Origin: a bacterium
GTDB lineage: Bacteria; Actinomycetota; Acidimicrobiia; Spongiisociales; ZC4RG35
Direction of reading: 5' to 3'
Assembly (NCBI GenBank): GCA_024639335.1
Contig: JAHEIN010000001.1
Coordinates: forward strand, 1,408 to 65,407
Length of the DNA: 64,000 nucleotides
A program made the position numbers and the translations under genes. The notes below the pieces were generated by a model. That model searched no databases, was not told where the DNA came from, and worked only from the letters and a program-made list of their open reading frames with translations. Below are positions 1-28,198 of the stretch, piece after piece (within the stretch, counting starts at the first letter, position 1; every line of letters starts with the position of its first letter).

Positions 1-144
1 GCACGATCGTCCCTGGCCCACGGCTCCTTGGGTACAACGACGTGGGCCACCTGAGACCGATTGCCAGCGACGACACACCGTACGCGCCCGTCGTGGGGGC
101 CCCGAGTCCCGACTCTCCGGCTCCGGGCATCTAGCATTGGTCCC

Positions 145-483
145 ATGAAAAAGGTTGGTCGTATCGTCGGATTCATCGGAGGGGCCGCCGCCATCCTGTG
201 GGCGATGCGTGACCGCCTCATCTCGATTACCGCCCCGGCGGAACCAGAGCCACCGCGTTTCCGAGTTGTCACACCCCCGGCGCCGATGCCGTCCACGGAC
301 AGCGTCACCGATGACCTGACCGTCGTCACCGGCATCGGGCCGGTCTTCGCCGCCCGCCTCAGGGCCGCAGGAATCGACACGTTCGCCAAACTGGCTGCCA
401 CGGACGACGCCCGGCTGGCCGAAGTGGCAGATGTTCCGATCTCGCGCGTCGAGGGGTGGCGAGACCAGGCGTCGAAGCGCTGA
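145..483 (+). CDS. Small membrane-associated protein with a helix-hairpin-helix motif (DUF4332-like)
   Basis: ORF 61..483 trimmed to the internal ATG at 145 (MKKVGRIVGFIGGAAAILWAM, a hydrophobic N-terminus). C-terminal TGIGPVFAARLRAAGIDTFAKLA is an HhH-like motif. The end abuts the rlmN start at 485, which suggests an operon. Confidence 0.45.
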   Translation: MKKVGRIVGFIGGAAAILWAMRDRLISITAPAEPEPPRFRVVTPPAPMPSTDSVTDDLTVVTGIGPVFAARLRAAGIDTFAKLAATDDARLAEVADVPISRVEGWRDQASKR

Positions 484-484
484 C

Positions 485-1564
485 GTGCCGTATCTCACAG
501 ATCCCCGCGAGTTGGGGAGCCTGATCGGCGATGAGCCGGGCTATCGGGCCGGACAACTGCACGACTGGTTGTACAAGACGCCGGTGCTCACCGCGGCCGA
601 GATGACCAGTCTCCCCCCGGCTCTACGGGAAAGCCTCGCCGACCGTCTGTGGCCGTTCACGGTCGAGACCGAACAGTCGGCCGATTCGGGCGCAACCCGC
701 AAGTGGCTCTTCCGGGCGCACGACGGGATGGCGATCGAAGCCGTGCTGATGGGCTACCACAACCGCACCACCTTGTGCGTCTCGAGCCAGGCCGGATGCG
801 CGCTCGGATGTACGTTCTGCGCAACCGGCCAGTTCGGCTTCGACCGCCACTTGGAGGCGGGAGAGATCGTTGCCCAGGTCCAGTACGCCAATGCCTGGCT
901 CCGGGCCAATCCGATACCTGGATCGCCTGGCCGGGTGACGAACATCGTGTTCATGGGGATGGGTGAGCCGCTCGCCAACTACGACAGGGTCCGCGAGTCG
1001 ATCCGCCGCATGATCGAGCACATCGGCATGGGTGCGCGGTCGATCACCGTGTCGACGGTCGGCATGGTGCCGGGGATGCTGCGCCTTGCAGATGAGCCTT
1101 GGCAGGTCAGTCTGGCGGTCAGCCTTCATGCCGCCGACGACGAGTTGCGCTCGTCGATCCTTCCCGTCAACAAGCGGTATCCGTTGGCCGAGGTGGAGTC
1201 TGCCGCCGTCCGTTACTTCGAAGCCAAGGGACGGCGGGTCTCGATCGAGTGGACGATGCTGGCGGGAGTCAACGACTCGATCGACCAGGCCGAGAAGCTC
1301 GCTCCCATCGCCCGCCGCCTGCATGCGCACGTCAACCTCATTGCAATGAACCCGACCCCGCTGTCCATCGACCAGCCGTCGAAACGGGCGGTGATCGAGC
1401 GGTTCGCTGCGACAATCGAGCGACTGGGCGTGAATGTCACGATCCGGAACACACGCGGCCAAGAGATCGATGCGGCCTGCGGGCAGCTGAGGGTGCGTGC
1501 GGCGTCCCCCACCCCGGCTGACGGGCGGATTCGAACGCCTCTGCGAGTCAGTACCACCGAGTAG
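485..1564 (+). CDS. rlmN: 23S rRNA (adenine2503-C2)-methyltransferase RlmN, radical SAM
   Basis: Radical-SAM CxxxCxxC motif (CALGCTFCATGQ). GMGEPLAN, and overall RlmN/Cfr-like layout over ~360 aa. In-frame GTG at 485 gives the N-terminus VPYLTDPRELGS. Confidence 0.85.
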   Translation: MPYLTDPRELGSLIGDEPGYRAGQLHDWLYKTPVLTAAEMTSLPPALRESLADRLWPFTVETEQSADSGATRKWLFRAHDGMAIEAVLMGYHNRTTLCVSSQAGCALGCTFCATGQFGFDRHLEAGEIVAQVQYANAWLRANPIPGSPGRVTNIVFMGMGEPLANYDRVRESIRRMIEHIGMGARSITVSTVGMVPGMLRLADEPWQVSLAVSLHAADDELRSSILPVNKRYPLAEVESAAVRYFEAKGRRVSIEWTMLAGVNDSIDQAEKLAPIARRLHAHVNLIAMNPTPLSIDQPSKRAVIERFAATIERLGVNVTIRNTRGQEIDAACGQLRVRAASPTPADGRIRTPLRVSTTE

Positions 1565-1643
1565 GCCACAAGCCGGGTTTTCGCGCGCTATGGTCGAAGC
1601 CAACAGCGGGCGCTGTCAGGGGCATTTCCAGGGGATCACGGAA

Positions 1644-5279: not shown

Positions 5280-6341
5280 ATGAGCGAAGTGCTGCCCGAG
5301 ACGATTCCGGTGAGACACGACGAGCGCATCGATGTCGGACACTTGATGACATGGCTCGGAGGGCGCCTACCTGGAGCCGACACGACGCCGCAGGTTTCAC
5401 AATTCTCTCGGGGCAAGGCAAACCTCACATACCTGCTCGACTTCGGTGACGGCAACGAATACGTGCTTCGAAGGCCGCCGCTCGGTCCTGTGGCGCCGGG
5501 GTCGCACGACATGGGCCGCGAGCACCGAGTGCTGTCGACGTTGTGGCGGGCCTTTCCGCTGGCACCTCGGTCCTATGTCTTCTGCGACGACGACTCGGTG
5601 ATCGGCGCACCGTTCTTCGTCATGGAGCGCCGCCACGGAATCGTCGTCCAGAACACGGTTCCGGACATCTTCGGTGGCGGCGACGAGCCGGTGGCGAACC
5701 GCAAACTGTCGGAAGTCGTGGTGGACACGCTTGCCGAGTTCCATGCCGTCGCTCCCGCCGAGGCCGGGCTGGCGGACCTCGGGCGCCCAGAGGGGTTCCT
5801 CGAGCGACAGGTGACCGGTTGGGCTCGTCGATGGGACGCTGCCAAACACGAGGACAATCCGCTGGCCGACGAACTGTCGCAGTGGCTGGTCGAGACGATG
5901 CCGCCGTCGCCACCTGCCTCCCTGCTACACAACGACTGGCGCCTCGACAACATGGCGGTGTCCGAGGAGGACCCCGGCGTGTGTGTCGCGGTCTACGACT
6001 GGGACATGTGCACACAGGGAGACCCGCTCGCCGACTTGGGGACGGTGATGGCGGTCTGGTACGACGACGGTGAGATGCCGTCGGCGCTCAACCCGATGCC
6101 GACGACGCGCCCAGGCTTCATGACCCGGGCCGAGGCGATTCAGCGGTATGCCGAGCGCTCGGGTGTCGAGGCCGCCGAGATCGGCTGGTACGTGGTGTTC
6201 GGGACGTTCAAGCTGGCCGGGGTGCTCCAGCAGATCTACATCCGCTGGCATCGGGGGCAGACCAAGGACGAGCGTTTCGCCCGATATGGGGAAGGCGCGG
6301 CGAGGCTGATCCAGCTCGCCGATGAGCGGCGCCGGAACTGA
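5280..6341 (+). CDS. Phosphotransferase family protein (APH/ChoK-like kinase fold)
   Basis: Conserved HNDWRLDNM catalytic loop and DWDMCTQGDPLADLG (DxD-like) motif typical of aminoglycoside phosphotransferase-like kinases. Confidence 0.8.
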   Translation: MSEVLPETIPVRHDERIDVGHLMTWLGGRLPGADTTPQVSQFSRGKANLTYLLDFGDGNEYVLRRPPLGPVAPGSHDMGREHRVLSTLWRAFPLAPRSYVFCDDDSVIGAPFFVMERRHGIVVQNTVPDIFGGGDEPVANRKLSEVVVDTLAEFHAVAPAEAGLADLGRPEGFLERQVTGWARRWDAAKHEDNPLADELSQWLVETMPPSPPASLLHNDWRLDNMAVSEEDPGVCVAVYDWDMCTQGDPLADLGTVMAVWYDDGEMPSALNPMPTTRPGFMTRAEAIQRYAERSGVEAAEIGWYVVFGTFKLAGVLQQIYIRWHRGQTKDERFARYGEGAARLIQLADERRRN

Positions 6342-6362
6342 GCGGCGGTACGCTGGCCGTCG

Positions 6363-7784: not shown

Positions 7785-8626
7785 CCGCCCTGACTGCTTC
7801 AGACGCCGAAACGACGATCACCTCTCCGCTCGGGAGGATGTTGCGTGACATCGGGGTCATCACGAAGCGCAACGTGCTGAGAAACGTCCGGCTGCCCCAG
7901 CTCCTCCTGTTCGCCACCATCCAGCCGGTGATGTTCCTCCTGCTGTTCAACTACGTGTTCGGCGGGTCGATCGGGAGGGCTCCCCAACTCGCCCAGTTCG
8001 GCAGCTACATCAACTGGTTGGTTCCGGGGATCATCATCCAGACCGCCACGTTCGGGTCGAGCCAGACCGCTGTAGGGCTCACCGAAGACCTCCAGGCCGG
8101 TGTGATCGACCGCTTCCGGTCGCTCCCGATGGCCCGCTCTGCGGTGCTCGCAGGCAGAACCATCTCCGACCTGATCAGGAATGCCTTCGTCTCGGGCCTG
8201 ATGTTGACGGTCGGTGCGCTCATCGGATTCAGGTACCAGACCTCGTTCCTGCAACTGGTGTTTGCGTTCTTGATCGCGATGGGTTTCGCGTTCTCCTTCA
8301 GCTGGGTGATGGCAGCCGTCGGTCTGGCCGTCAAGGACACCGAGACCGCCCAGACCGCCAGCTTCATCCCGCTGTTCCCGCTGGTGTTCGCCTCGTCTGT
8401 GTTCGTGTCGGTCGAATCGCTCCCCGATTGGCTACGGGTCTTCGCGGACCATCAGCCTGTGACGGTCATGGCGAACGCGATGCGCGGGCTCATGCTCGGG
8501 GAGGCGGCACTCCCTGCCGGCACGACCGTGGGGGGAACGGTCACGGCGTCGCTGGTGTGGATCGCAGTGATCTTGTTGATCTTCTTCCCGCTCAGCGTCC
8601 GCCTCTACCGCCGCGCTGCCGGCTGA
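7781..8626 (+). CDS. ABC-2 family transporter permease
   Basis: 281 aa with about 6 hydrophobic helices. Translationally coupled to the upstream ATPase (ATGA overlap). Confidence 0.8.
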   Translation: MTALTASDAETTITSPLGRMLRDIGVITKRNVLRNVRLPQLLLFATIQPVMFLLLFNYVFGGSIGRAPQLAQFGSYINWLVPGIIIQTATFGSSQTAVGLTEDLQAGVIDRFRSLPMARSAVLAGRTISDLIRNAFVSGLMLTVGALIGFRYQTSFLQLVFAFLIAMGFAFSFSWVMAAVGLAVKDTETAQTASFIPLFPLVFASSVFVSVESLPDWLRVFADHQPVTVMANAMRGLMLGEAALPAGTTVGGTVTASLVWIAVILLIFFPLSVRLYRRAAG

Positions 8627-17984: not shown

Positions 17985-19118
17985 TCAGCCCTGGTCGTCT
18001 CGGGCGCCGAGCTCGATGGCGAAGGTCTCCACACTGCCGTTCCGGTCGATCACCAGCTCGACCGAGTCGCCGGCTTCGAACGCTCTGACCTGCGCTCCGA
18101 GGTCGGCCGGCTCGGCGATCGGGACACCGTTGATTGAGAGCACCGTGTCACCGACACGAATCCCTGCCGCTGCGGCTGCGGTGCCTGCTGTGACCTCTGA
18201 AACGACGGCGCCCGCCGACAGATCTGAGGTGTTGTCCAGCCTGACGCCGAGGAATCCCGCCACGAACTCGCCACCCGAGACGAGCGCCTCGGAGACCCGG
18301 AACGCCCTGTCGATCGGGACGGCGAAGCCGACCCCGTCGTTCGCTCCCGAAGTGGAATAGATCGAGACGTTGATCCCGATCACCCGGCCCGACCGGTCGA
18401 CCAGCGGACCGCCCGAGTTGCCGGGATTGATGGACGCATCGGTCTGAAGCATCGAGCGAGGCACGCCTTGGCCGCTGAGGATGGTTCGATCCACTGCGGA
18501 CACGATTCCAGACGTGACAGTGGAGTCGAGGCCCCAGGGGCTCCCCAGGGCGATCGCTAGCGACCCCGGCCTGGGCTTGTCGTCGAGGGCGAGCGGGGCG
18601 GCGGAATAGGGGCCGCCGCCGATGGAGATCACAGCGATGTCGTTGTTGACGTCCTGGCCGATCACCTGGCCGACGACCTTGTTTCCATCAGAGAGGCGCA
18701 CCCGAACCTCGTCGAGCCCCTGAACGACATGTTCGGCGGTCATGATGAAGCCATTCGGGTCGTAGATCACGCCGGTGCCCACGCCTCGTTCGATGCCGTT
18801 GTTGACGACCTCGATCTGCACGACCGAAGGCAGCAGAGCCTCGGCAACATCGGCCACCGGCTCGTCCCCGGGAACGATCACGAGGGGATCGGTCTCCACA
18901 TCGACCGTCGATGACGGCCTGATGGTCGTGGTGGTGGTCGACTCGACGAAAGAGGCCGCAACTTCTGTGGGGGTCTCTGCGCTCTCATCGGAGGCGGGCT
19001 CGGTGAAGAGCCATCCGATGCCGATGCCCGACACGAAGAGGGCGACGGCAGTGAGGAGCGTGGCGATACGGCCTGCCCGGCGAGGTGGTTCGGAAGGGAT
19101 TGGATGATCCATGGTCAC
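17985..19118 (-). CDS. HtrA/DegP-family serine protease with C-terminal PDZ domain (PepD-like)
   Basis: N-terminal TM anchor. Catalytic triad contexts TAEHVV / DIAVI / GNSGGPLVD. C-terminal PDZ (LGVRLDN...VLSINGVPI). 6 nt downstream of the histidine kinase gene. Confidence 0.85.
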   Translation of the reverse strand: MTMDHPIPSEPPRRAGRIATLLTAVALFVSGIGIGWLFTEPASDESAETPTEVAASFVESTTTTTIRPSSTVDVETDPLVIVPGDEPVADVAEALLPSVVQIEVVNNGIERGVGTGVIYDPNGFIMTAEHVVQGLDEVRVRLSDGNKVVGQVIGQDVNNDIAVISIGGGPYSAAPLALDDKPRPGSLAIALGSPWGLDSTVTSGIVSAVDRTILSGQGVPRSMLQTDASINPGNSGGPLVDRSGRVIGINVSIYSTSGANDGVGFAVPIDRAFRVSEALVSGGEFVAGFLGVRLDNTSDLSAGAVVSEVTAGTAAAAAGIRVGDTVLSINGVPIAEPADLGAQVRAFEAGDSVELVIDRNGSVETFAIELGARDDQG

Positions 19119-19124
19119 TCGTCA

Positions 19125-20342
19125 TTACCTCGTGTCGTCGGTGGGCAAACCTGGTTCATGAGTACCCGGCGATCCGTAAAGCTCGAGTAAACGCTCTCCG
19201 CCGATCGGCGCGCTGGCTGGATCGGGATCGTCGGGCAACGCGATGGAGAGAACCGAGCCTCCTTCTGGTCGGACCACGGCCGAGAACCGACCTGCGTGTA
19301 TGGCGACGATCTGACGGACGATGCCAAGCCCCATTCCCCCATCACCGTTGTCGCCGTTCAAAGCAAGCTCCACATCTATACCGGGCCCTTCGTCGACCAC
19401 ACCGAGATAGGTCCAGTCGCCGACCCTTCTCAGAACGAGCGAAACCGCTCCCCCGGCAGGGCTCTCACGCACTGCGTTGTCGATCAGGTTTCCGAGCGCT
19501 CGCCGCAACATGTCCGGATCTGCCATGACCGTGATCGGGTCGGTAGGCATGTCCGATTCGATCACCACGCCATCCGACCTGGCGGTCGGTCCGAGGTCGG
19601 ACACGAGCTCGGTGACGATCTGCGCTGGATCGATCGCTGTCAGCGTCGCCCCGGCGAGTTCCTTGCGGGCGACGGCGAGGAGATCGTCGACCATGACCGA
19701 GATACGGTCGGCGGCACGCTCGACGACTTCGCCGGTCTGCCTCCAGTCCTCGAGGGTGGCCCCGGGGTCATTGGAGATCACGTCGAGGTTCGAGCGGATG
19801 ACGGCGAGGGGGGTCCGGAGATCGTGTGAGGTGTGGGCGAGGAAGCGCTGCTGGGATCGGAATGATCCGGACAGTCGATCGAGCATCGCATCGAAGGTGT
19901 TGGCCAATCGAGTGAGTTCGTCATCGGGCCCGTCGAGCCCGATCCTCCGATCGAGATCGGTCGCCTGGATGTCTCGCGCCACAGAGGTGATCTCGTCGAT
20001 CGGTCGGAGCGACCGGCTTGCGATGACCCAACCGACGATGAGCGAGAGTGCGAACAGTGCCAGCAGGATGCCAATGGTCCAGACGGCGAGCTGGTTGAGC
20101 ACCACTTCCTTGATCAGGCTCTCGATGGTTCGCATTTCCACCTGTGTCAAACGGACGGCGAGCCGCTCGCCGTCGATCAACACCGGCTCGAGGGTGCTTC
20201 CGGTGACGGTCAGCGACTGCACGGCTCGGAGGGTCACGTAGTAGATCACAGCCAGAGCCAGCCCGGCGACGCTGAAGACCAGCGCGGAGGTGAGACCCGA
20301 CAGTCGGAATCTCAGTGAACGTGTGACGGGCGGGAGCTGCAT
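19125..20342 (-). CDS. Sensor histidine kinase (MprB-like)
   Basis: Two TM segments, HAMP, H-box HDLRTPLAVI, and N/G1/G2 boxes (DNAVRESP...VDEGPGI...GGMGLGI). Confidence 0.85.
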   Translation of the reverse strand: MQLPPVTRSLRFRLSGLTSALVFSVAGLALAVIYYVTLRAVQSLTVTGSTLEPVLIDGERLAVRLTQVEMRTIESLIKEVVLNQLAVWTIGILLALFALSLIVGWVIASRSLRPIDEITSVARDIQATDLDRRIGLDGPDDELTRLANTFDAMLDRLSGSFRSQQRFLAHTSHDLRTPLAVIRSNLDVISNDPGATLEDWRQTGEVVERAADRISVMVDDLLAVARKELAGATLTAIDPAQIVTELVSDLGPTARSDGVVIESDMPTDPITVMADPDMLRRALGNLIDNAVRESPAGGAVSLVLRRVGDWTYLGVVDEGPGIDVELALNGDNGDGGMGLGIVRQIVAIHAGRFSAVVRPEGGSVLSIALPDDPDPASAPIGGERLLELYGSPGTHEPGLPTDDTR

Positions 20343-20383
20343 CGAGAGAGACGCTATCGGTCGGTCGTTAAGCGAAGGGTAAA

Positions 20384-21079
20384 TCAGCGCAAGACGTAGC
20401 CCCGACCGGGAACCGTCTCGATGGCTGACGGCTCGCCCAGCTTCTTGCGAAGGTTCGAGACCGTGACGCGCACCGTGTTCGTGAAGGGATCCGCCATCTC
20501 GTCCCAGACGTGCTCGAGCAAACGCTCCTGGCTGAGCACCTCGCCCCGATTCCGCATGAAGTACTCCAACAGCGCGAACTCCTTGACCGTCAGCGGCAGT
20601 GCTCGCCCGCTGCGAGTGGCCTGAAAAGCGGCCGGATCGAGGGTGAGATCTCCTACCGAGAGAACGGGGCTTCCCCCAGCGTCTCGACGAAGCAACGCCC
20701 GGACCCTCGCCTCGAGTTCGGCGAAGGCGAAGGGCTTGACCAGATAGTCGTCTGCACCGGCGTCGAGCCCCATGACGCGATCCTCGATCGAATCTCGTGC
20801 CGTGAGCATCAACACCTTCGGCTCGAGCGTGCCGAATGTCTCGACCTCACCAGAACGGATGCGAGAACAGAGATCGACCCCCCGGCCGTCGGGCAGATTC
20901 CAATCCAAGATCACCAGATCGTATTCGACTGTCGACACTGCGAGTTCCGCATCGATGACCGAAGCAGCCGAGTCGACCGCGTGGCCGCCGCGCACCAATC
21001 CGCGCACGATCGCAGAAGCGAGGTCGGGTTCGTCTTCGACAACCAGGAGCCGCATTCCCCGAACTGTATCGACACTCAA
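20384..21079 (-). CDS. OmpR/PhoB-family response regulator (MprA-like)
   Basis: Receiver domain (LLVVEDE...DLVILDWNLPDG...LMLTARD) plus winged-helix output (LTVKEFALLEYFM...GRGYVL). Confidence 0.9.
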   Translation of the reverse strand: MSVDTVRGMRLLVVEDEPDLASAIVRGLVRGGHAVDSAASVIDAELAVSTVEYDLVILDWNLPDGRGVDLCSRIRSGEVETFGTLEPKVLMLTARDSIEDRVMGLDAGADDYLVKPFAFAELEARVRALLRRDAGGSPVLSVGDLTLDPAAFQATRSGRALPLTVKEFALLEYFMRNRGEVLSQERLLEHVWDEMADPFTNTVRVTVSNLRKKLGEPSAIETVPGRGYVLR

Positions 21080-21164
21080 TGGCGTCGCATCGAAGCGCCG
21101 GGCAGATCAGACTTCCGCCGACACCGAGAGAGCGAGCAGTCGTCTGCTCACTACATTCGGAGCG

Positions 21165-23498
21165 ATGAAGAAGCGGACGCCCGTGCAATTGCCGGAAGAG
21201 ATCTATCCGGACGACCCGTGGGTTCTGCTCGAGGACCAGTTCGCTCCCGACTTTCTGTACCTGACCGAGACCATCTTCGCACTCACCAACGGCCGGATCG
21301 GAGTGCGAGGCTCACTCGACGAAGGCGAGCCGAATCACGTCGTCGGGATGTACATCAACGGGTTCCATGAGACCTGGCCGATCACGCACGCCGAGAAGGC
21401 CTACGGTCTCGCCGAAGTCGGCCAGACCATGGTCACCGTTCCTGACGGCACACTGATCGAGATCACCGTGGACGGCGAGGCGTTCAATCTCCCATCGGTC
21501 GAGATCATTCGCTGCAGGCGTTGGCTCGACATCCAACGCGGGATGCTGGAACGCGATATCGCCTGGAGGACGAAGTCCGGCGTCACCGTCGAGCTCCGCT
21601 TTCTGCGGTTCGTGTCACTGGACATGGCGGACCTGTTGGCCTCACGGCTGGAGATCTCGGTAGACCGTCCGGCTGAGGTCCGGGTGGTATCGCGTCTCCG
21701 CAACCGACTCGACGCCGGTGTGGGCGAAGGCGAGCCGGACGACCCTCGACGAGCGAAGCAGTTCACCCAACGGGTGTTGGAACCGAGAGCAGCCACCCTT
21801 GCCGATCTCCGGTTCGTCCAGGCTTGGGTGACGGCACACTCGAGGATGGGCCTGCTGTCGGGAATGGACCATCTGCTCTCCGGGCCGAAGCCGAGGATCT
21901 CCCTCGATCGCTCGGCGATGGACTTCGGTTTCGAGTTCGAGTGGAGTCTGACGCCCTACGCCGGCGCCACGATCGACAAATTCGTCGTCGCCTCGCACAA
22001 CGGCGACTCACCCGGGCTCGACGAACGTCAGGCGATCGGTGAGATCCTCGACAGAGCGATACAACGCGGGCTCCCAACCCTCGCAGCGGATCACGAAGCC
22101 AAGCTGAGGGAGTTCTGGAACGAGAACGACATCGTGGTCACCGGTGCCGGCATCGAGACCCAGCGGGCCATCCGGTGGACGCTCTTCCAGCTCCATTCGA
22201 ACTCGGCGTGTCTACAGAATGCCAGCATCCCGGCCAAGGGCCTCACCGGCCACGCCTACGACGGGCACTACTTCTGGGACACCGAGATCTACATCCTCCC
22301 CTTCCTCATCTACACCAACCCCGACGTCGCCAGGCGGGTGCTGTCGCATCGCTACGCGATGCTCGAGCATGCCCGGGAGCGGGCGCGGACGCTGTCACAC
22401 GACGGAATTCTCTTCCCGTGGCGGACGATCAACGGACATGAGGCTTCGGCGTATTTTCTGGCAGGGACCGCCCAATATCACATCAACGCCGACATCGTGT
22501 ACTCGATCCGCAAATACGTCCAGGTCACAGGAGACCGAGAGTTCCTCTGGGCCATGGGCGCAGAGATCGTCCTCGAGACCGCCAAGTTCTGGCACGATCT
22601 CGGGTTCTATCGGTCCGATCACTTCCACATCCACGGGGTCACCGGCCCAGACGAATACACCGCCCTCGTCGATGACAACGCCTACACCAACGCAATGGCT
22701 CGCATGAACCTGAGATACGCCTTCGAAGTGGCGTCTGAGTTGTCGGCCGAAGAGCCGGAACGGTGGGAAGCATTGAGGGAGCAGGTGGGGATCGCCGACG
22801 GGGAGACCATCGATTGGCGTCTCGCCGCCGATGCCATGTACATCCCGCATGATCGGGACCTGGGAATCACCCCTCAAGACGACGACTTCTTGGAGAAGGA
22901 GGCGTGGGACTTCGAGAGCACACCCGAATCGAAGTACCCGCTGCTGCTGCACTTCCACCCCCTCACCATCTACAGGTTCCAGGTTCTCAAACAGGCCGAC
23001 GTCGTGTTGGCCGACTTCCTGCTCGGGGAAGAATTCAACGACGAGCTCAAGCGCGCCAACTTCGACTTCTACGAGCCGCTCACCACCGGCGACTCCTCAC
23101 TGAGTGCCAGCATCCAGGCGATCATGTCGGCCGAGCTCGGATACCACAAGGCAGCGATGCGTCATTTCCACCATGCCCTCTTCATGGACCTGGGCGACAT
23201 CGCCGGCAACACCACCGACGGGGTTCACATGGCGTCGGCCGGCGGTGTGTGGATGGCGCTGGTGTACGGATTCGCGGGTATGCGAGACGTCCGTGGAACG
23301 ATCTCCTTCGATCCCCGAATGCCAAAGGAGTGGAGCGAGATGAAGTTCAGTCTTCACATACGCGACACGGTGCTGTCGGTCGGGCTGAGTCACGAGTCGA
23401 TCACTCTCGTCACGACCGAGCCGATCGAGGTCATCGTCGATGGCGAGACGCATTTGGTGGCTCCGGGTGGAGGCACCGTCGTCCGCTATCAGACTTGA
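21165..23498 (+). CDS. Glycoside hydrolase family 65 disaccharide phosphorylase (maltose/trehalose/kojibiose phosphorylase-like)
   Basis: ORF 20772..23498 trimmed to the ATG at 21165 (MKKRTPVQ), because the upstream part overlaps the response regulator on the other strand. 777 aa with GH65 N-terminal beta-sandwich, central (alpha/alpha)6 catalytic region (general-acid region FWDTEIYILPF) and C-terminal domain. Confidence 0.85.
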   Translation: MKKRTPVQLPEEIYPDDPWVLLEDQFAPDFLYLTETIFALTNGRIGVRGSLDEGEPNHVVGMYINGFHETWPITHAEKAYGLAEVGQTMVTVPDGTLIEITVDGEAFNLPSVEIIRCRRWLDIQRGMLERDIAWRTKSGVTVELRFLRFVSLDMADLLASRLEISVDRPAEVRVVSRLRNRLDAGVGEGEPDDPRRAKQFTQRVLEPRAATLADLRFVQAWVTAHSRMGLLSGMDHLLSGPKPRISLDRSAMDFGFEFEWSLTPYAGATIDKFVVASHNGDSPGLDERQAIGEILDRAIQRGLPTLAADHEAKLREFWNENDIVVTGAGIETQRAIRWTLFQLHSNSACLQNASIPAKGLTGHAYDGHYFWDTEIYILPFLIYTNPDVARRVLSHRYAMLEHARERARTLSHDGILFPWRTINGHEASAYFLAGTAQYHINADIVYSIRKYVQVTGDREFLWAMGAEIVLETAKFWHDLGFYRSDHFHIHGVTGPDEYTALVDDNAYTNAMARMNLRYAFEVASELSAEEPERWEALREQVGIADGETIDWRLAADAMYIPHDRDLGITPQDDDFLEKEAWDFESTPESKYPLLLHFHPLTIYRFQVLKQADVVLADFLLGEEFNDELKRANFDFYEPLTTGDSSLSASIQAIMSAELGYHKAAMRHFHHALFMDLGDIAGNTTDGVHMASAGGVWMALVYGFAGMRDVRGTISFDPRMPKEWSEMKFSLHIRDTVLSVGLSHESITLVTTEPIEVIVDGETHLVAPGGGTVVRYQT

Positions 23499-24847
23499 GG
23501 CGAGATGGTCAACCGCAGGACGAGGTCTTCTTGGTCGAAGAGCAGTCGATAGTCGACTCCATTCCGGCTGATCCTGCCATCGAGCCCTCCAAGTTGGGGG
23601 TCCCGGACGTTCAATCCCATCGCACCGAGCACCGCCCCGCGTTCGGCGGGCTCCAGTGATGGATCGGCTACGGCGATGGCGAGCCCGAGCGCCTGGATAC
23701 CGAGCTGGTCCGAAGAAGATGGCCCTGTCGGATCGACCTCGAGGGTGTACGCGGCGATGCCCTCGCCCTGGCCGTCGAAGCTCCCGATCATGGCGATGAA
23801 ACCCGTGAATCCAACCTCGAATTCACTGGCGGGCAGTGACGAGCGGAATCTGAGGTTCGGTGAGACCCCGGCAGCGTTTTCGTTCCATCGTTCCACGAAA
23901 GCGTCGGGTGCGAGATCGAAGACCAGTGGCGCACCGGCCACGGTCGAGTCGACCGTCGTTGGCGCAGTGGTTCCCGGCACGGTCGTCGGCGCCTGGGTCA
24001 CCGGCACGGTGGTCTGGACGACGGTTGCAGGAGTCGTTTCTTCCGAACCGGCGAAGAAGTCCAGCACTACCGGCACCGCAAAGGCCAATCCGGCGACGAC
24101 GGCGATCGCGACGACGGCGATCGCGATCGGCCTGAGTCGTGCCTTGTCGAAGCTCACGGACGTGGCGCTCCGCAGCGACCGCTGGCTCTCGAGAATCTCG
24201 TCCGCAACGGTGGACTCCCCCACCTCCTCGTCGAATTCGATGTCATGGTCTTCATCGGTGGGGAAGCTGTACCCCTCGTCACCCGGGATGACGAAGCCGC
24301 TCGACGAGGAGCGCTCACCAGGATCATCGGGTTCCTGATCGCCGTCTTCCGGCCCGTCTTCGGTCTGACGCTCGCGGAAGCCGCTCATCGCCGCAGCGAG
24401 ACGTTCCCGCGATGACGGCCCGAATCCGGATGCGCTCTCGGTCACAGCTTCGGACGCTTCGACCTCGGGCTCTGCCTGGCCGGCGGTCGGCGGATCTTCG
24501 TCGACGACAGGCAGGTCGGGGGCGGCCGACACGGGCGCAACGTGAATCTCTGGCTCTCTGTCACCACCGTCAACGAGCATCTCATCGACCGCTTCGGCGA
24601 ACGCTCCGGTGTCGGCGGGATAGAACGTCACCACGTCGTCCCCGACGGACAGCTCGTAGCCGCCGCTCGAGTTCGACTGAAAACGGATGGCGTCGCGGTC
24701 CCAGAGACCGATTTCGGCGAAAGGAGTCGCCAGTCTGATCTTCTCTGCCGCTATTTGGAGGTCTACATCGACCTCGTCACCCTCTAGGAGCACGATTCGC
24801 CCGGGGAACGTTCCGCTCATCTCTGGCCGTTTCTCGAGTGGATGCAT
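23489..24847 (-). CDS. Single-pass membrane protein, paralog A (cytoplasmic N-domain, acidic linker, TM, Pro/Thr-rich extracellular linker, conserved C-terminal domain)
   Basis: Start trimmed to the internal ATG at 24847 or 24820 by alignment with paralog B. TM segment IAIAVVAIAVVAGLAFAVPVVL. C-terminus ADPSLEPAERGAVLGAMGLNVRDPQLGGLDGRISRNGVDY aligns with paralog B. Confidence 0.55.
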   Translation of the reverse strand: MHPLEKRPEMSGTFPGRIVLLEGDEVDVDLQIAAEKIRLATPFAEIGLWDRDAIRFQSNSSGGYELSVGDDVVTFYPADTGAFAEAVDEMLVDGGDREPEIHVAPVSAAPDLPVVDEDPPTAGQAEPEVEASEAVTESASGFGPSSRERLAAAMSGFRERQTEDGPEDGDQEPDDPGERSSSSGFVIPGDEGYSFPTDEDHDIEFDEEVGESTVADEILESQRSLRSATSVSFDKARLRPIAIAVVAIAVVAGLAFAVPVVLDFFAGSEETTPATVVQTTVPVTQAPTTVPGTTAPTTVDSTVAGAPLVFDLAPDAFVERWNENAAGVSPNLRFRSSLPASEFEVGFTGFIAMIGSFDGQGEGIAAYTLEVDPTGPSSSDQLGIQALGLAIAVADPSLEPAERGAVLGAMGLNVRDPQLGGLDGRISRNGVDYRLLFDQEDLVLRLTISPQV

Positions 24848-24917
24848 GACACAGTATGTCGGCGGTGCACCCCACCTTCTTGAGTCCGAGGAGAATAATG
24901 GGCCGATCGGACCGGGC

Positions 24918-25562
24918 TCAGCCCCAACAGTGACGGCTGGGATTCCAGTGCGACCAGCCACCTCCCTCGTACACCAGCCACGCCGCCACGGCGACGTTCG
25001 CCGCCGGGTCGAAGATGTCCGACCCCGCCAGACCCGCCTTCACACTCCGCTGGGGCCAGAAGCGTCCGAGATGCTGGAACAGGCCGCTTGCCGACGAGCG
25101 CGGGTTCTTGGCGTTGGGGTCTCCCGACGACTCGCAACTGATGACGGCCAGCGCAAGGGCCACGTCATTCGGGGCGAAATGAGCCTCGACGAGCGGCCGC
25201 CACACCTCGACATCGCGGGGCGCCAGTTTCCTGGCGACCGGGGCGGGCGGTTGCGCCTGCACGCCTCGCTCGGAGACGACCGACTCTTCCGGCTCGGGGA
25301 AGTCGAGCCCTCCTGCGACGACCGTCGGGGCGCATCGAGCGCCAATCCGGGGAATGGCGCAGCCGGGGGGAAGCGTCGCCGTCGTCGTGGTCACCGGAAC
25401 GACGGCAGCGGAGAACCCGTCCGCCAATGCGAACGAGGCGTGGGCAGGGTTGACGGCGACCTCCCCCAGATTGGAGGTAGCGGGCGACGTCCACGCACCG
25501 CCGACGAACATCAGCGATGCGAGAAGGCCGAGCCCGGTGAGATATGACGCAAACGCGCGCAC
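24918..25562 (-). CDS. Secreted lytic transglycosylase-like protein (SLT domain)
   Basis: N-terminal signal peptide (LLASLMFVGGAWTSPA). C-terminal SLT catalytic region AVISCESSGDPNAKNPRSSASGLFQHL...W (E-S catalytic dyad context and GLFQ motif). Confidence 0.6.
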   Translation of the reverse strand: MRAFASYLTGLGLLASLMFVGGAWTSPATSNLGEVAVNPAHASFALADGFSAAVVPVTTTTATLPPGCAIPRIGARCAPTVVAGGLDFPEPEESVVSERGVQAQPPAPVARKLAPRDVEVWRPLVEAHFAPNDVALALAVISCESSGDPNAKNPRSSASGLFQHLGRFWPQRSVKAGLAGSDIFDPAANVAVAAWLVYEGGGWSHWNPSRHCWG

Positions 25563-25679
25563 GGAATGACCTCGCGGAATTGGGAATGCGCAACGATCAT
25601 CGCTGCGGGAGCCCTACGGTTGGGCTTCGGTGATGACAACGCTATTGGGGACCGCTCACGTTTGCAAGCGGGGAGGGTG

Positions 25680-26639
25680 TCACACCTCGGGCGCGATCGT
25701 GAGCAGCACCGAAGAGAACGACTGGAAGTACTTCATCGTGTAGCGAATCCCGTTCCGGGTCGTTTCCCCGTCGAGCCCTCCCAGCTGGGGCAATCTCACA
25801 TCGAGACCCATCTCTGCGAGGATCTCACGCCGGTCGGTCTCGTCGAGACTGGGATCGGCGACCGTGAGTGCGATGCCCCAGCTTGCGATCGTTGCCTGGT
25901 CACTGTCGGTATCCCCCGACGGATCTGCCACGACCACCAGCGACCGCACGTCGCCATCATCGTCGGTGGTTCCTTGGAGCGAGATCAGCGGCGCCAGCTG
26001 GGTGTCGAATGAGCCCCGCGGAAGGGCGTCGCGGATCAACAGTGGCGTCCCGAATTCGCGAGCCACCCGATTCCACTCGACCACCAGAAGCGAAGGATCG
26101 AGGTCGAAAGCGCTCACCGGCGGGACAGCGGCGCTCGCAGAGGTGCCCTCGAGTGAGACGGGCTCGACCGTTTCCGGCTCGTCGCCAAAGACCGTGTCGA
26201 CCACCCACACCCCTGCGAACACCATCACGACGACCGCAGCGAGCACCCCAAGCAGAGGCGACCTGAGGACGGAGAGGTCGACCGGGATCGTGGGCTTCGC
26301 AGCAGGCTCCTCATCGATCGATTCGTCGCCGTTCGATTCGACCGTCCGGACCACATTGATGCGGTCGGCGAGGCTCGAGGCCTTGAACCGCTGGGCGGCG
26401 ACGATGGCGAACTGCCTGGTGTCATCGGGTTCGAACGAGACGACCTCGCCGTCGACGCTGATGCGATAGGTGGACGCGTCCGTTTTGGAGACGCGGCAGT
26501 ACTTGATCGGCCACGTCCCGATCAGGACGCTGTCTGCGCGCAGCGTCAACGCGTCGGGCGATATCTCCAGGTCCACCGCCACGACATCCTGCTCGGGAAG
26601 CGTGAGCTTCCCGGAAAAGCGGTCGGCCACGAGGATCAC
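25680..26639 (-). CDS. Single-pass membrane protein, paralog B
   Basis: 319 aa with the same architecture as 23489..24847. N-domain aligns (GKLTLPEQDVVAVDLEI vs GRIVLLEGDEVDVDLQI). C-terminus ADPSLDETDRREILAEMGLDVRLPQLGGLDGETTRNGIRY aligns with paralog A. Confidence 0.55.
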   Translation of the reverse strand: MILVADRFSGKLTLPEQDVVAVDLEISPDALTLRADSVLIGTWPIKYCRVSKTDASTYRISVDGEVVSFEPDDTRQFAIVAAQRFKASSLADRINVVRTVESNGDESIDEEPAAKPTIPVDLSVLRSPLLGVLAAVVVMVFAGVWVVDTVFGDEPETVEPVSLEGTSASAAVPPVSAFDLDPSLLVVEWNRVAREFGTPLLIRDALPRGSFDTQLAPLISLQGTTDDDGDVRSLVVVADPSGDTDSDQATIASWGIALTVADPSLDETDRREILAEMGLDVRLPQLGGLDGETTRNGIRYTMKYFQSFSSVLLTIAPEV

Positions 26640-26749
26640 GGTACCTCACCTCGCGCGAGTTGTTCCAGCTTTCGTCACGGGCCCGGCGACTCATCTGGGA
26701 TTCGCCTTCGTGATTTCCTGGCACCGACACGACGGGCGACAATGCCGTC

Positions 26750-28198
26750 ATGGGTTCCAAGCTCGCCGGCACACTCGTCTTCTTCACCTCTGCAGCGGTT
26801 CTGATTCTCGAGATCCTGGCCGGACGTCTGTTGGCTCCCTATTCAGGAGTGACGCTCGAGACGTTCACTGCCATCATCGGCGTCGTCCTGGCAGGGATCG
26901 CTGTAGGAACATGGCTGGGAGGGCGTTATGCCGACCGGGCGGGGTCCCCCGTCGCGCTCATCGGTCCCGTATTGATCCTGGGCGGCGCGTTGGCGGCCTC
27001 CACCGTCCCGTTGGCACGCCTCCTCGGCCCATCGATGGGGACGGCCGGACTCGCCGGACTCGTCCTGTTGACCGCCATTGCCATCCTGCCCGCCACGGCT
27101 GTCCTCTCTGCAACTCCGCCGATCATCGTCAAGATCATCCTCGACGATCTCGGCACGACCGGCGCAACGGTGGGGCGGATCTCGGCCCTCGGGACCGCAG
27201 GAGCGCTGTTCGGCACATTCACGAGCGGGTTCGTGCTGGTGGCCACGCTTTCGACGTCGGTGATCGTCCTCACGGTTGCGGTCACCACCGCAATCGTCGG
27301 CATCGGCATGTGGATGCAGTATCGACCGGACAGCCATGCCCTCGGCACTTTCGCCCTGATCGGACTGCTCGCAGGGTCGACTCTGACAGCAGCGGTCCAG
27401 AGCCCATGTGATGTCGAGACCGCCTATTTCTGCGCCTCTGAGATCGTCGACCCCGAAGATCCGGACGCGTCGTTCCTCCTCCTGGACACCGTCACACACG
27501 CATACGTCGACAAAACCGACCCGACGAACCTGCGGTTCACTTCGATTCGCATGTTCGCCTCCGCCATCGATGCCATGACCACCGGCGAGATCGCTGCGCT
27601 CCACGTGGGGGGCGGCGGCTTGACGGTGGCGAGCTGGCTCACCGAGACACGTCCGGCATCGCGGAACGTCGTCCTGGAGCTCGACGGCGCCCTCGTCGAG
27701 TTCGTCGCGGAGCGATTCGATCCGGCGCCCGTCGACCTGACCATCATCGGCGACGCCCGGGTGTCACTCGAAGCGGCAGGCGATGGATTCGATGTCGTGA
27801 TCGGCGACGCATTCGGTGGCCTGGCCGTGCCGTGGCACCTGACCACGGTGGAGTTCTTCGAAGAGATCTCCGGGGCACTGGTCGACGACGGCTTCTACCT
27901 CATGAACCTCATCGATCACGGAGATCTCGACTTCCTGCGGGCCGAGGTCGCAACCGCCACCGCGGTCTTCCCCTCCGTCGGCGTGGTGACACTGCCAGAG
28001 CGATTCGATACGGGCGGCAACTTCATGCTCATGGCGTCGAAACAGCCGATCCCCGCCGATCGCATCGTGGCGGAGGCGTCGGCGCTCGATCTCGAGGTGA
28101 GGGTCCTGACGGGGAGCGAACTCCAGGAGTTCGTCGACGCTGCAGAGATCCTGACCGACGACTTCGCTCCCGTCGATCAGCTCTTGGCCACCTCCTGA
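26750..28198 (+). CDS. Fused membrane domain / spermidine synthase-like aminopropyltransferase
   Basis: About 7 N-terminal TM helices followed by a SpeE-like Rossmann domain (VGGGGLTVASWL...VIGDAFGGLAVPWHL). Confidence 0.7.
   Translation: MGSKLAGTLVFFTSAAVLILEILAGRLLAPYSGVTLETFTAIIGVVLAGIAVGTWLGGRYADRAGSPVALIGPVLILGGALAASTVPLARLLGPSMGTAGLAGLVLLTAIAILPATAVLSATPPIIVKIILDDLGTTGATVGRISALGTAGALFGTFTSGFVLVATLSTSVIVLTVAVTTAIVGIGMWMQYRPDSHALGTFALIGLLAGSTLTAAVQSPCDVETAYFCASEIVDPEDPDASFLLLDTVTHAYVDKTDPTNLRFTSIRMFASAIDAMTTGEIAALHVGGGGLTVASWLTETRPASRNVVLELDGALVEFVAERFDPAPVDLTIIGDARVSLEAAGDGFDVVIGDAFGGLAVPWHLTTVEFFEEISGALVDDGFYLMNLIDHGDLDFLRAEVATATAVFPSVGVVTLPERFDTGGNFMLMASKQPIPADRIVAEASALDLEVRVLTGSELQEFVDAAEILTDDFAPVDQLLATS

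Follow-up and report, generated by a model that had tools for sequence, protein, structure and literature searches.

Organization of the Locus and Spread of the Family

The 64-kb window analyzed here, which is the whole stretch of contig JAHEIN010000001.1 introduced above (class Acidimicrobiia, G+C content approximately 65%), contains three consecutive genes on the minus strand, designated B, SLT, and A in their 5′ to 3′ order and referred to below as the triad. Gene B (25680..26639) encodes a bitopic membrane protein. Its open reading frame (ORF) extends over 319 amino acids (aa) from GTG 26639, and the probable start is GTG 26630, which gives a protein of 316 aa and represents the sole start codon conserved across lineages, just before the sequence (A/x)-D-x-F. 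The SLT gene (24918..25562), an ORF of 214 aa with a Pfam match, encodes an SLT-type lytic transglycosylase. Gene A (23489..24820) encodes a second bitopic membrane protein, paralogous to B, of 443 aa from ATG 24820 and with a long acidic linker. An initial annotation, prepared from the letters without database searches, had located all three minus-strand ORFs correctly, with the exception of the start of A and probably that of B. The ORF used there for A (23489-24961) begins at GTG 24961 and comprises 490 aa, while alignment with four orthologues from other contigs places the true start 47 codons further inside, at ATG 24820 (MSGTFPGR), the upstream 47 codons having no counterpart in any orthologue. 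Gene A therefore does not overlap the SLT gene, and the spacers among the three genes measure 97-117 nucleotides (nt). A and B constitute a previously undescribed family of membrane proteins; the family of the enzyme is known, and the enzyme is an ordinary representative of it.

To establish the distribution of the family, 1.84 billion cluster representatives were searched exhaustively with a profile, which returned 525 proteins at E ≤ 1e-3, with 87 at E ≤ 1e-30. For B, 44 homologues ranging from close to distant were obtained, all of them unnamed. A pattern scan of 185,579 species genomes detected B in 12, all uncultured Acidimicrobiia or unclassified metagenome-assembled genomes (MAGs), and the named relatives are all MAGs labelled “Acidimicrobiia bacterium”. 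Repeating the homologue search with a word index and a divergent alignment yielded two more proteins and no new taxa. No usable match to A or B was found in Pfam, NCBIfam, PHROGs, or the PDB sequences, which agrees with the initial statement that neither paralogue can be placed in a named family. A phage or plasmid origin was rejected, as PHROGs gave no match for A or B, tblastn no plasmid match, and no viral contig carried a relative. An identity with RseA-like anti-sigma factors was also rejected, since the match (E = 0.073, 12.5 bits against a cut-off of 263) is confined to the linker and transmembrane (TM) region and the N-terminal domain is predicted to be a beta-sandwich, not helical; the NCBIfam matches to RseA and IcmG/DotF (E = 0.07) likewise lie in the low-complexity linker. 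One further protein, P0174 (309 aa), consists of a truncated N-domain fused to an ABC ATPase of which only the C-terminal half is present, and was judged to be a probable assembly chimera or rearrangement instead of an alternative architecture.

Domain Architecture and Topology of A and B

A and B are significant, ancient paralogues. Comparison by BLASTP gave 35% identity over 223 aa (E = 2e-31) across the TM helix, spacer, and C-terminal domain, and 29% identity over 125 aa (E = 2e-08) across the N-terminal domain. The order of N-domain, one hydrophobic helix, and C-domain was observed in 159 of the 194 family proteins examined. The paralogy and the common plan described initially, including an acidic tract, a single TM helix, and a Pro/Thr-rich spacer, hold up well. 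The conserved C-terminal module had been taken as approximately 60 aa and is in fact much longer, at approximately 145 aa.

In B, the cytoplasmic N-domain (aa 6-100; 26340..26624; this and the following segments all lie on the minus strand) has a predicted PH-like fold followed by the conserved helix AAQRF(R/K)ASSLADRINV(I/V)R, and approximately 27 of its residues are invariant among 16 orthologues. The TM helix (aa 127-147; 26199..26261) displays a hydropathy of 2.43 and corresponds to a model helix at 128-151, its flanks carrying two Lys or Arg residues before and none after, with five Asp or Glu residues after. The extracytoplasmic C-domain (aa 173-318; 25686..26123) is a predicted alpha/beta domain, hitherto undescribed, of the order alpha-beta3-alpha-alpha-beta3. 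The corresponding segments of A are the cytoplasmic N-domain (aa 4-77; 24590..24811), homologous to the PH-like domain of B, the TM helix (aa 232-252; 24065..24127; hydropathy 2.86, with four Lys or Arg residues before and none after), and the extracytoplasmic C-domain (aa 297-441; 23498..23932), homologous to that of B. The homology is reflected in the hidden Markov models (HMMs), in which the N-domain of B matches A-type proteins at 1e-8 to 1e-18 and the C-domain at 1e-29 to 1e-40. An N-terminal signal sequence was seen in neither A nor B. Because basic residues precede the helix and acidic residues follow it, the positive-inside rule predicts an N-in/C-out topology for both proteins, in line with the cytoplasmic N-domain and single membrane pass assigned to them initially.

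The linker that precedes the helix in A comprises 146 aa, 27% of which are Asp or Glu (residues 80-225), and the spacer that follows the helix contains 38% Pro and Thr. Among A orthologues the length of the linker varies from approximately 130 to more than 500 aa. Within residues 130-225 of this acidic linker (approximately 24146-24433, minus strand), short conserved islands can be observed, namely GFGPSSRERLAAAMSGFRERQ, GF(V/M)IPGD.GY, and TVAD.ILESQRSLRS, which may be docking motifs or amphipathic juxtamembrane helices. A helix resembling these islands, SSLADRINV(I/V)R, is situated after the PH-like domain in B.

The C-domain identity is 0.45 among A-type and 0.43 among B-type sequences, against 0.33 between the two types, and declines to approximately 25% among orthologues. 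For 49 of 49 C-domain sequences the nearest neighbour was of the same type. Judged by these comparisons, A and B are two separate ancient clades that were retained together, a pattern that fits non-redundant partner subunits.

Predicted Folds of the Cytoplasmic and Outer Domains

An AlphaFold2 (AF2) model of B was built on 16 orthologues. The N-domain was modelled as seven strands and a C-terminal helix with a predicted local distance difference test score (pLDDT) of 85-89; by DSSP, the strands lie at 6-13, 19-26, 30-35, 38-44, 48-52, 58-62, and 65-71, and the helix at 74-84. When this model was compared with the PDB by Foldseek, the top 50 matches were all of the PH, PTB, FERM-F3, or EVH1 type, the best with E = 7.6e-04. 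As the matches belong exclusively to these types, the cytoplasmic domain of B is predicted to be PH-like, a seven-stranded beta-sandwich with a helix cap. This predicted architecture is common to eukaryote-type PH, PTB, and FERM-F3 domains and to bacterial PH-like domains. The domain nevertheless differs from known PH domains: the template-modelling (TM) score on the target is approximately 0.6 at an identity of 5-17%, no Pfam PH or bPH family is matched, and lipid-binding or peptide-binding residues cannot be assigned. At E ≤ 1, Pfam gave no match at all for A, the bacterial PH families (bPH_1-6) included, and for B only two sub-threshold, unrelated matches. As modelled, the PH-like fold would represent a generic docking module, very strongly conserved in B.

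The C-domain of B, with a pLDDT above 90 in the model of the whole protein, reached a pLDDT of 93.7 and a predicted TM score (pTM) of 0.89 when modelled alone by AF2. Foldseek returned no PDB match at E ≤ 1e-3, and the best PDB matches were weak, with ExsC at 0.011 and the DUF4309 protein YjgB at 0.026 and TM scores of approximately 0.3. In the BFVD, the only matches were weak ones to uncharacterised phage proteins. The class I chaperones of type III secretion (ExsC, SchA) and DUF4309 (YjgB) share an alpha-beta3-alpha...beta order with the outer domain; however, at E values of 0.011-0.04, TM scores of approximately 0.3, and a different cellular location, the resemblance was treated as no established relationship.

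The SLT-Type Lytic Transglycosylase

The catalytic segment of SLT type recognized in the initial annotation is well supported by the profile search. PF01464 matched aa 133-197 with 29.3 bits against a gathering score of 21.3 (E = 7e-07), and SLT_3 reached 25.8 bits, just short of its threshold. Both E144-S145 and G160-L161-x-Q163 occur without exception in the 57 relatives compared, across which the enzyme appears catalytically intact. The protein consists of a hydrophobic N-terminal segment (aa 3-23), a conserved Cys-containing region (PPGC..C), and the catalytic domain (approximately aa 117-214). The third motif, A-Y-N-x-G, is absent and is replaced by a conserved AAWLVYEGGGWSHW, which is a subfamily variant common to SLT_3-like domains. 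The enzyme shares the E-S and GLxQ motifs with family 1 lytic transglycosylases (PF01464/GH23, including small SLT_3- or Rpf-like members) and is distinguished from the known enzymes by its unusual third motif and by the extra conserved Cys-containing N-terminal region. The profile search of the PDB gave weak matches to phiKZ gp144 and EmtA, and the PHROGs matches are transglycosylase domains.

Two cysteines, C143 beside the catalytic Glu and the C-terminal C212, are present in at least 52 of the 57 relatives, and their arrangement is like that of the Rpf disulfide. The resemblance to Rpf is limited to this arrangement, as the Rpf family itself (PF06737) did not match the SLT protein at E ≤ 1. 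In one locus, L066, a DsbA gene (5798-6352) is situated directly upstream of the SLT gene; together with the conserved cysteines, this neighbour fits an extracytoplasmic location of the enzyme. A signal peptide had been assigned to it initially. The hydrophobic N-terminus is indeed present, but its cleavage is doubtful, as neither a lipobox nor a clear AXA site could be read from the sequence, and the segment may instead be an uncleaved anchor.

Conservation of the Gene Linkage

The order B-SLT-A on the same strand was found in 11 of the 12 GTDB species loci, at B identities as low as 33-35%, and also occurs in locus L019 and in many SLT-anchored metagenome contigs, so that the triad is kept as a unit well beyond the genome in which it was first described. 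The genes upstream of B are wholly different between lineages while B-SLT-A persists. Reduced arrangements were also encountered. In L025, L027, and L029, B-SLT is followed directly by genes for a response regulator, a kinase, and HtrA; L066 contains DsbA-SLT-A, L018 contains B-A with no SLT, L041 has SLT alone beside a GH65 gene, and L020 and L067 carry solo family members. Furthermore, 30 of 45 SLT-anchored loci have no A or B neighbour, most of them containing distant enzymes that match in the catalytic domain alone; the SLT proteins of L034, L036, and L041, which belong to this group, match over nearly their full length. Because of these reduced arrangements and SLT loci, the linkage must be described as strong but not absolute. 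After rearrangement, the SLT gene stays beside one paralogue, as B-SLT in L025, L027, and L029 and as SLT-A in L066. In L018, an Acidimicrobiia MAG, the gap between B and A measures 408 nt (7966-8375) and contains no SLT remnant, and the WhiG-type motif upstream of A, described below, is kept.

Such a distribution could in principle reflect synteny inherited within one class with no coupling at all, the function of A and B being unrelated to peptidoglycan cleavage and SLT being a housekeeping autolysin. It would be consistent with this explanation that all matches are from Acidimicrobiia, that each gene appears to have its own promoter, that SLT is missing in L018 and both A and B are missing beside SLT in L041, and that the GH65 gene, with no obvious link to the wall, and the regulator-kinase-HtrA genes are equally syntenic. 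However, the triad outlasts the complete turnover of the genes upstream of B, and in the reduced forms SLT still lies next to one of the paralogues, in surroundings that are new and differ from case to case. Moreover, the C-domain identity between orthologues falls to a level (approximately 25%) at which unselected adjacency would usually be expected to have decayed. We therefore regard inheritance without coupling as an improbable account of the linkage.

Promoter and RNA Signals

A simple promoter and terminator scan had found no promoter motif around the triad; the motifs described here emerged solely from the comparison of orthologous spacers. Upstream of A, a WhiG2/sigma-28-type motif, TCAA-N16-GCCGA (TCAAGAAGGTGGGGTGCACCGCCGAcat; TCAAGAAGGTGGGGTGCACCGCCGA), is located at 24859..24883 on the minus strand, 38 nt before ATG 24820. 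Among 28 unique A-type upstream regions, solo members included, the motif is exact in 22 and carries one mismatch in 6, at a near-fixed distance from the start; for comparison, 19 of 2000 random windows matched. It is also the sole intergenic match to T(A/C)AA-N16-GCCGA in the window. Two other TMAA-N16-GCCGA matches (1167 and 1269) were taken as chance occurrences, since they lie inside long overlapping ORFs (431-1564, plus strand, and 623-1603, minus strand).

WhiG is a lifestyle-switch sigma factor. In other Actinomycetota, a fall in cyclic di-GMP (c-di-GMP) frees WhiG2, a factor of the sigma-28 family, from its anti-sigma factor RsiG. RsiG, the cognate anti-sigma factor of WhiG2, has been reported in 3 of 4 Acidimicrobiales species (PMC8325347). 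In the survey of the WhiG2 regulon, the consensus is given as T(A/C)AA, N16, and GCCGATAA, of which the central CGA is critical and the last three bases are variable, and promoters were searched for with a 16-nt spacer, GCCGA with an intact central CGA, and a distance of no more than 200 bp from the start codon (PMC12871210). The motif upstream of A agrees with this published consensus in its -35 element, spacer, GCCGA, central CGA, and distance to the start codon. It is the same as the search consensus T(A/C)AA-N16-GCCGA(TAA) of WhiG2 regulon promoters (PMC12871210, PMC8325347), apart from the last three -10 bases, which are CAT/TGG and not TAA. The survey's main text makes no mention of Acidimicrobiia, transglycosylases, or peptidoglycan (PMC12871210). 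In locus L019, a gene for an EAL protein (c-di-GMP phosphodiesterase; 5493-6293) is found immediately upstream of B, which is worth recording in view of the link between WhiG, RsiG, and c-di-GMP. Control of autolysins by the sigma-28 family is classic in B. subtilis. In contrast to the sigma-D-dependent autolysins of Bacillus, the sigma-28-type promoter here belongs to the neighbour A and not to the enzyme.

The WhiG motif was not found at the B or SLT genes. For B, an extended -10 box, GGTACCGT (26638..26645, minus strand), ends 7 nt before GTG 26630, and in 15 of the 17 unique regions upstream of B, G-n-TAnnnT precedes the conserved GTG by 7-10 nt. This short distance suggests a leaderless mRNA starting 9 nt downstream of the first GTG of the ORF, from which B is probably translated as the 316-aa protein. 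For the SLT gene, a sigma-70-like promoter (TTGCAA, 17 nt, TAGCGT) lies at 25639..25667 on the minus strand, within the B-SLT spacer. The element is conserved in an alignment of close relatives, and TT[GC]nnn-16..18-TAnnnT recurs at a comparable position in 20 of 21 unique B-SLT spacers. As each gene has its own promoter motif, B, SLT, and A look separately transcribed, and A alone looks to be placed under an alternative sigma factor.

Between this promoter and the SLT gene, two GC-rich hairpins (25589..25626, minus strand) occupy the presumed SLT leader, in which compensatory changes keep the stems paired in five relatives, and at least one hairpin is present in the B-SLT spacer of each lineage. 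These hairpins could represent a leader structure of SLT or a terminator of B that lacks a U-tract. It should be noted that the observation is a weak one, since the single-sequence minimum free energy (MFE) z-scores of the hairpins were not significant and RNAalifold gave no consensus structure among distant B-SLT spacers. A riboswitch or other known RNA in the spacers was rejected, as Rfam gave no match at E ≤ 1 over 23000-27200, and a consensus terminator was not found around the triad genes.

The promoter of A raises the question of whether the module makes space for a machine that spans the envelope under WhiG control, for example type IV pili or flagella, with SLT opening the wall and A and B tethering it to the base of the machine through their PH-like domains. 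Specialised enzymes of SLT type do serve such machines, for example FlgJ/SltF, VirB1, and EtgA. Besides the WhiG2/sigma-28-type promoter of A, this explanation draws on WhiG homologues of other Actinomycetota, which are predicted to control flagella, chemotaxis, and type IV pili (PMC12871210, PMC8325347). Nevertheless, in all loci examined the 7-10 kb around the triad contain no pilus, flagellar, or secretion genes, the WhiG motif is confined to A within the triad, and no other intergenic site of this type exists in the window. A space-making role accordingly seems to have little probability. The divisome, septal remodelling, and secretion-apparatus roles suggested by the initial annotation receive no direct support, and apparatus genes are absent from the immediate vicinity.

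Proposed Function of the Module

We propose that the triad forms a conserved cell-wall remodelling module of the Acidimicrobiia, in which A and B act as transmembrane adaptors for the transglycosylase and A is under WhiG control; our belief and our doubt in this reading are roughly in balance. On this proposal, SLT, an enzyme of SLT/GH23 type that is membrane-anchored or secreted, would cut the glycan strands of peptidoglycan. A and B, probably as a heteromer, would span the membrane, their outer domains, held on flexible spacers, binding, positioning, or gating SLT at the interface of membrane and wall. The PH-like domains would dock onto a putative cytoplasmic partner and so determine where and when cleavage takes place. 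B and SLT would be made from housekeeping-type promoters, whereas A, in view of its WhiG2/sigma-28-type promoter, would be a conditional subunit supplied when WhiG is active. The PH-like cytoplasmic domain, the topology, and the gene linkage are consistent with control of cleavage from the cytoplasm. In this respect the module suggested by the initial annotation, coupling cytoplasmic input to peptidoglycan cleavage, stands as a plausible interpretation and no further. That annotation had missed the PH-like fold and the real extent of the C-domain, and likewise the WhiG/sigma-28-type promoter of A, the apparently separate promoters, and the conserved two-component and HtrA genes nearby.

Several observations weigh against the adaptor proposal. 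The apparently separate promoters and the spacers of 97-117 nt indicate that B-SLT-A is not a tight operon. SLT is dispensable for the pairing of A with B, as demonstrated by the B-A arrangement in L018, and related SLT genes exist with no A or B, both in L041 beside GH65 and among the 30 of 45 SLT-anchored loci; distant family members also occur solo (L020, L067). Since all genomes belong to one class, part of the synteny could be plain inheritance. Furthermore, the C-domain has no recognisable hydrolase-binding relative in the PDB and BFVD structure searches. The putative contact of A and B with SLT is inferred from the gene linkage, and the suggested read-out of the A promoter by WhiG from the motif.

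A more specific version of the adaptor proposal can be formulated, although we consider it speculative and more doubtful than the general form. Here, A and B would constitute a heteromeric switch, PH-like on the inside and with a new alpha/beta fold on the outside, which gates a dedicated SLT and converts second-messenger status into local cleavage for cell separation or envelope remodelling. It is equally tentative that such a switch would represent a form of autolysin control unrelated to FtsEX, SteAB, and the LytM-type activators. No PDB sequence match (family profile) and no NCBIfam match indicated homology of A or B to SteA/SteB or FtsE/FtsX, and SteB and FtsX do not appear among the listed fold matches of the A and B domains. 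A search of the literature returned nothing on a pairing of lytic transglycosylases with membrane proteins that carry PH domains.

To our knowledge, control of peptidoglycan hydrolases from inside the cell has been described for few systems, such as FtsEX with EnvC, RipC, PcsB, or CwlO and SteAB with RipA, and we know of none that has been described for the Acidimicrobiia, which are abundant and almost uncultured. The closest working analogue, although not homologous to A and B, is SteAB-RipA of the Mycobacteriales (Rv1697/Rv1698), an actinobacterial transmembrane complex encoded by adjacent genes that displays the design principle proposed here for A and B. Its outer part binds and positions the peptidoglycan hydrolase RipA, its cytoplasmic part contains a ligand- or partner-binding domain, and the complex is linked to the two-component system MtrAB (PMC12977500, PMC12818412). 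The differences are nonetheless considerable. A/B and SteAB are unrelated in sequence, and no similarity of fold could be detected between them. Of the two Ste proteins, SteA is cytoplasmic and TPK-like, while SteB is bitopic but of another kind; they are not mutual paralogues, whereas A and B are. The client of SteAB is an NlpC/P60 endopeptidase with a coiled coil, while here it would be SLT; and the SteAB-RipA interaction has been demonstrated, whereas that of A and B with SLT is proposed.

Should the adaptor proposal prove correct, the list of hydrolase controls would gain an unrelated family, PH-like on the inside and with an outer domain for which the PDB contains no structural relative. 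Cell-wall cleavage, a target absent from the main text of the regulon survey, would become linked to the WhiG-type sigma factors of Actinomycetota, and an unannotated family of approximately 500 sequence clusters would acquire a testable role. Should the adaptor role fail, A and B would still represent a new domain family that is well defined and whose regulatory signature is clear.

Neighbouring Genes

Genes for an OmpR-family response regulator (20384-21079), a HAMP histidine kinase (19125-20342), and an HtrA/PDZ protease (17985-19118), all on the minus strand, form a group (17985-21079) that neighbours the triad in every long locus. None of the three reaches an NCBIfam equivalog cut-off. 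In L027 and L029, the regulator, kinase, and HtrA genes follow B-SLT directly on the same strand, with neither GH65 nor A between them.

This association suggests another role, in which A and B are envelope signalling or accessory proteins, such as co-sensors or kinase modulators, of the neighbouring regulator-kinase-HtrA system, SLT being no client and merely a member of the regulon or a source of the signal. Accessory sensors are commonly built in this way, as bitopic proteins with an outer domain and a domain for docking in the cytoplasm, and TapA/SteA or LpqB are accessory modulators of MtrB. The activation of MtrB by TapA provides a mycobacterial precedent (PMC12818412), and the presence of the system in every long locus, including its position directly after B-SLT in L027 and L029, points in the same direction. 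The genomic arrangement is less favourable to it, as in most lineages the triad and the two-component genes are kept apart by a convergent GH65 gene, which may or may not be accompanied by a HAD gene, and the solo members L020 and L067 and the SLT-A pair of L066 are in neighbourhoods with no two-component system. Above all, A and B are linked most tightly and persistently to the SLT gene, not to the kinase. An accessory role in two-component signalling is consequently judged unlikely, and the role of A and B as adaptors of SLT is preferred.

The GH65 glycoside phosphorylase/hydrolase gene (21162-23498, plus strand) converges on A, with a 10-nt overlap of the 3′ ends (23489-23498). In nearly all loci this gene is syntenic with the triad, frequently together with a HAD gene (beta-phosphoglucomutase-like), and it has no obvious link to the wall. 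On the opposite side of the triad, the adjacent gene is not kept beside it in distant lineages; in the window, this gene (26750-28198, plus strand) diverges from B across a gap of approximately 110 nt and encodes a fused MFS/spermidine-synthase protein (NF037959, 313.8 bits).

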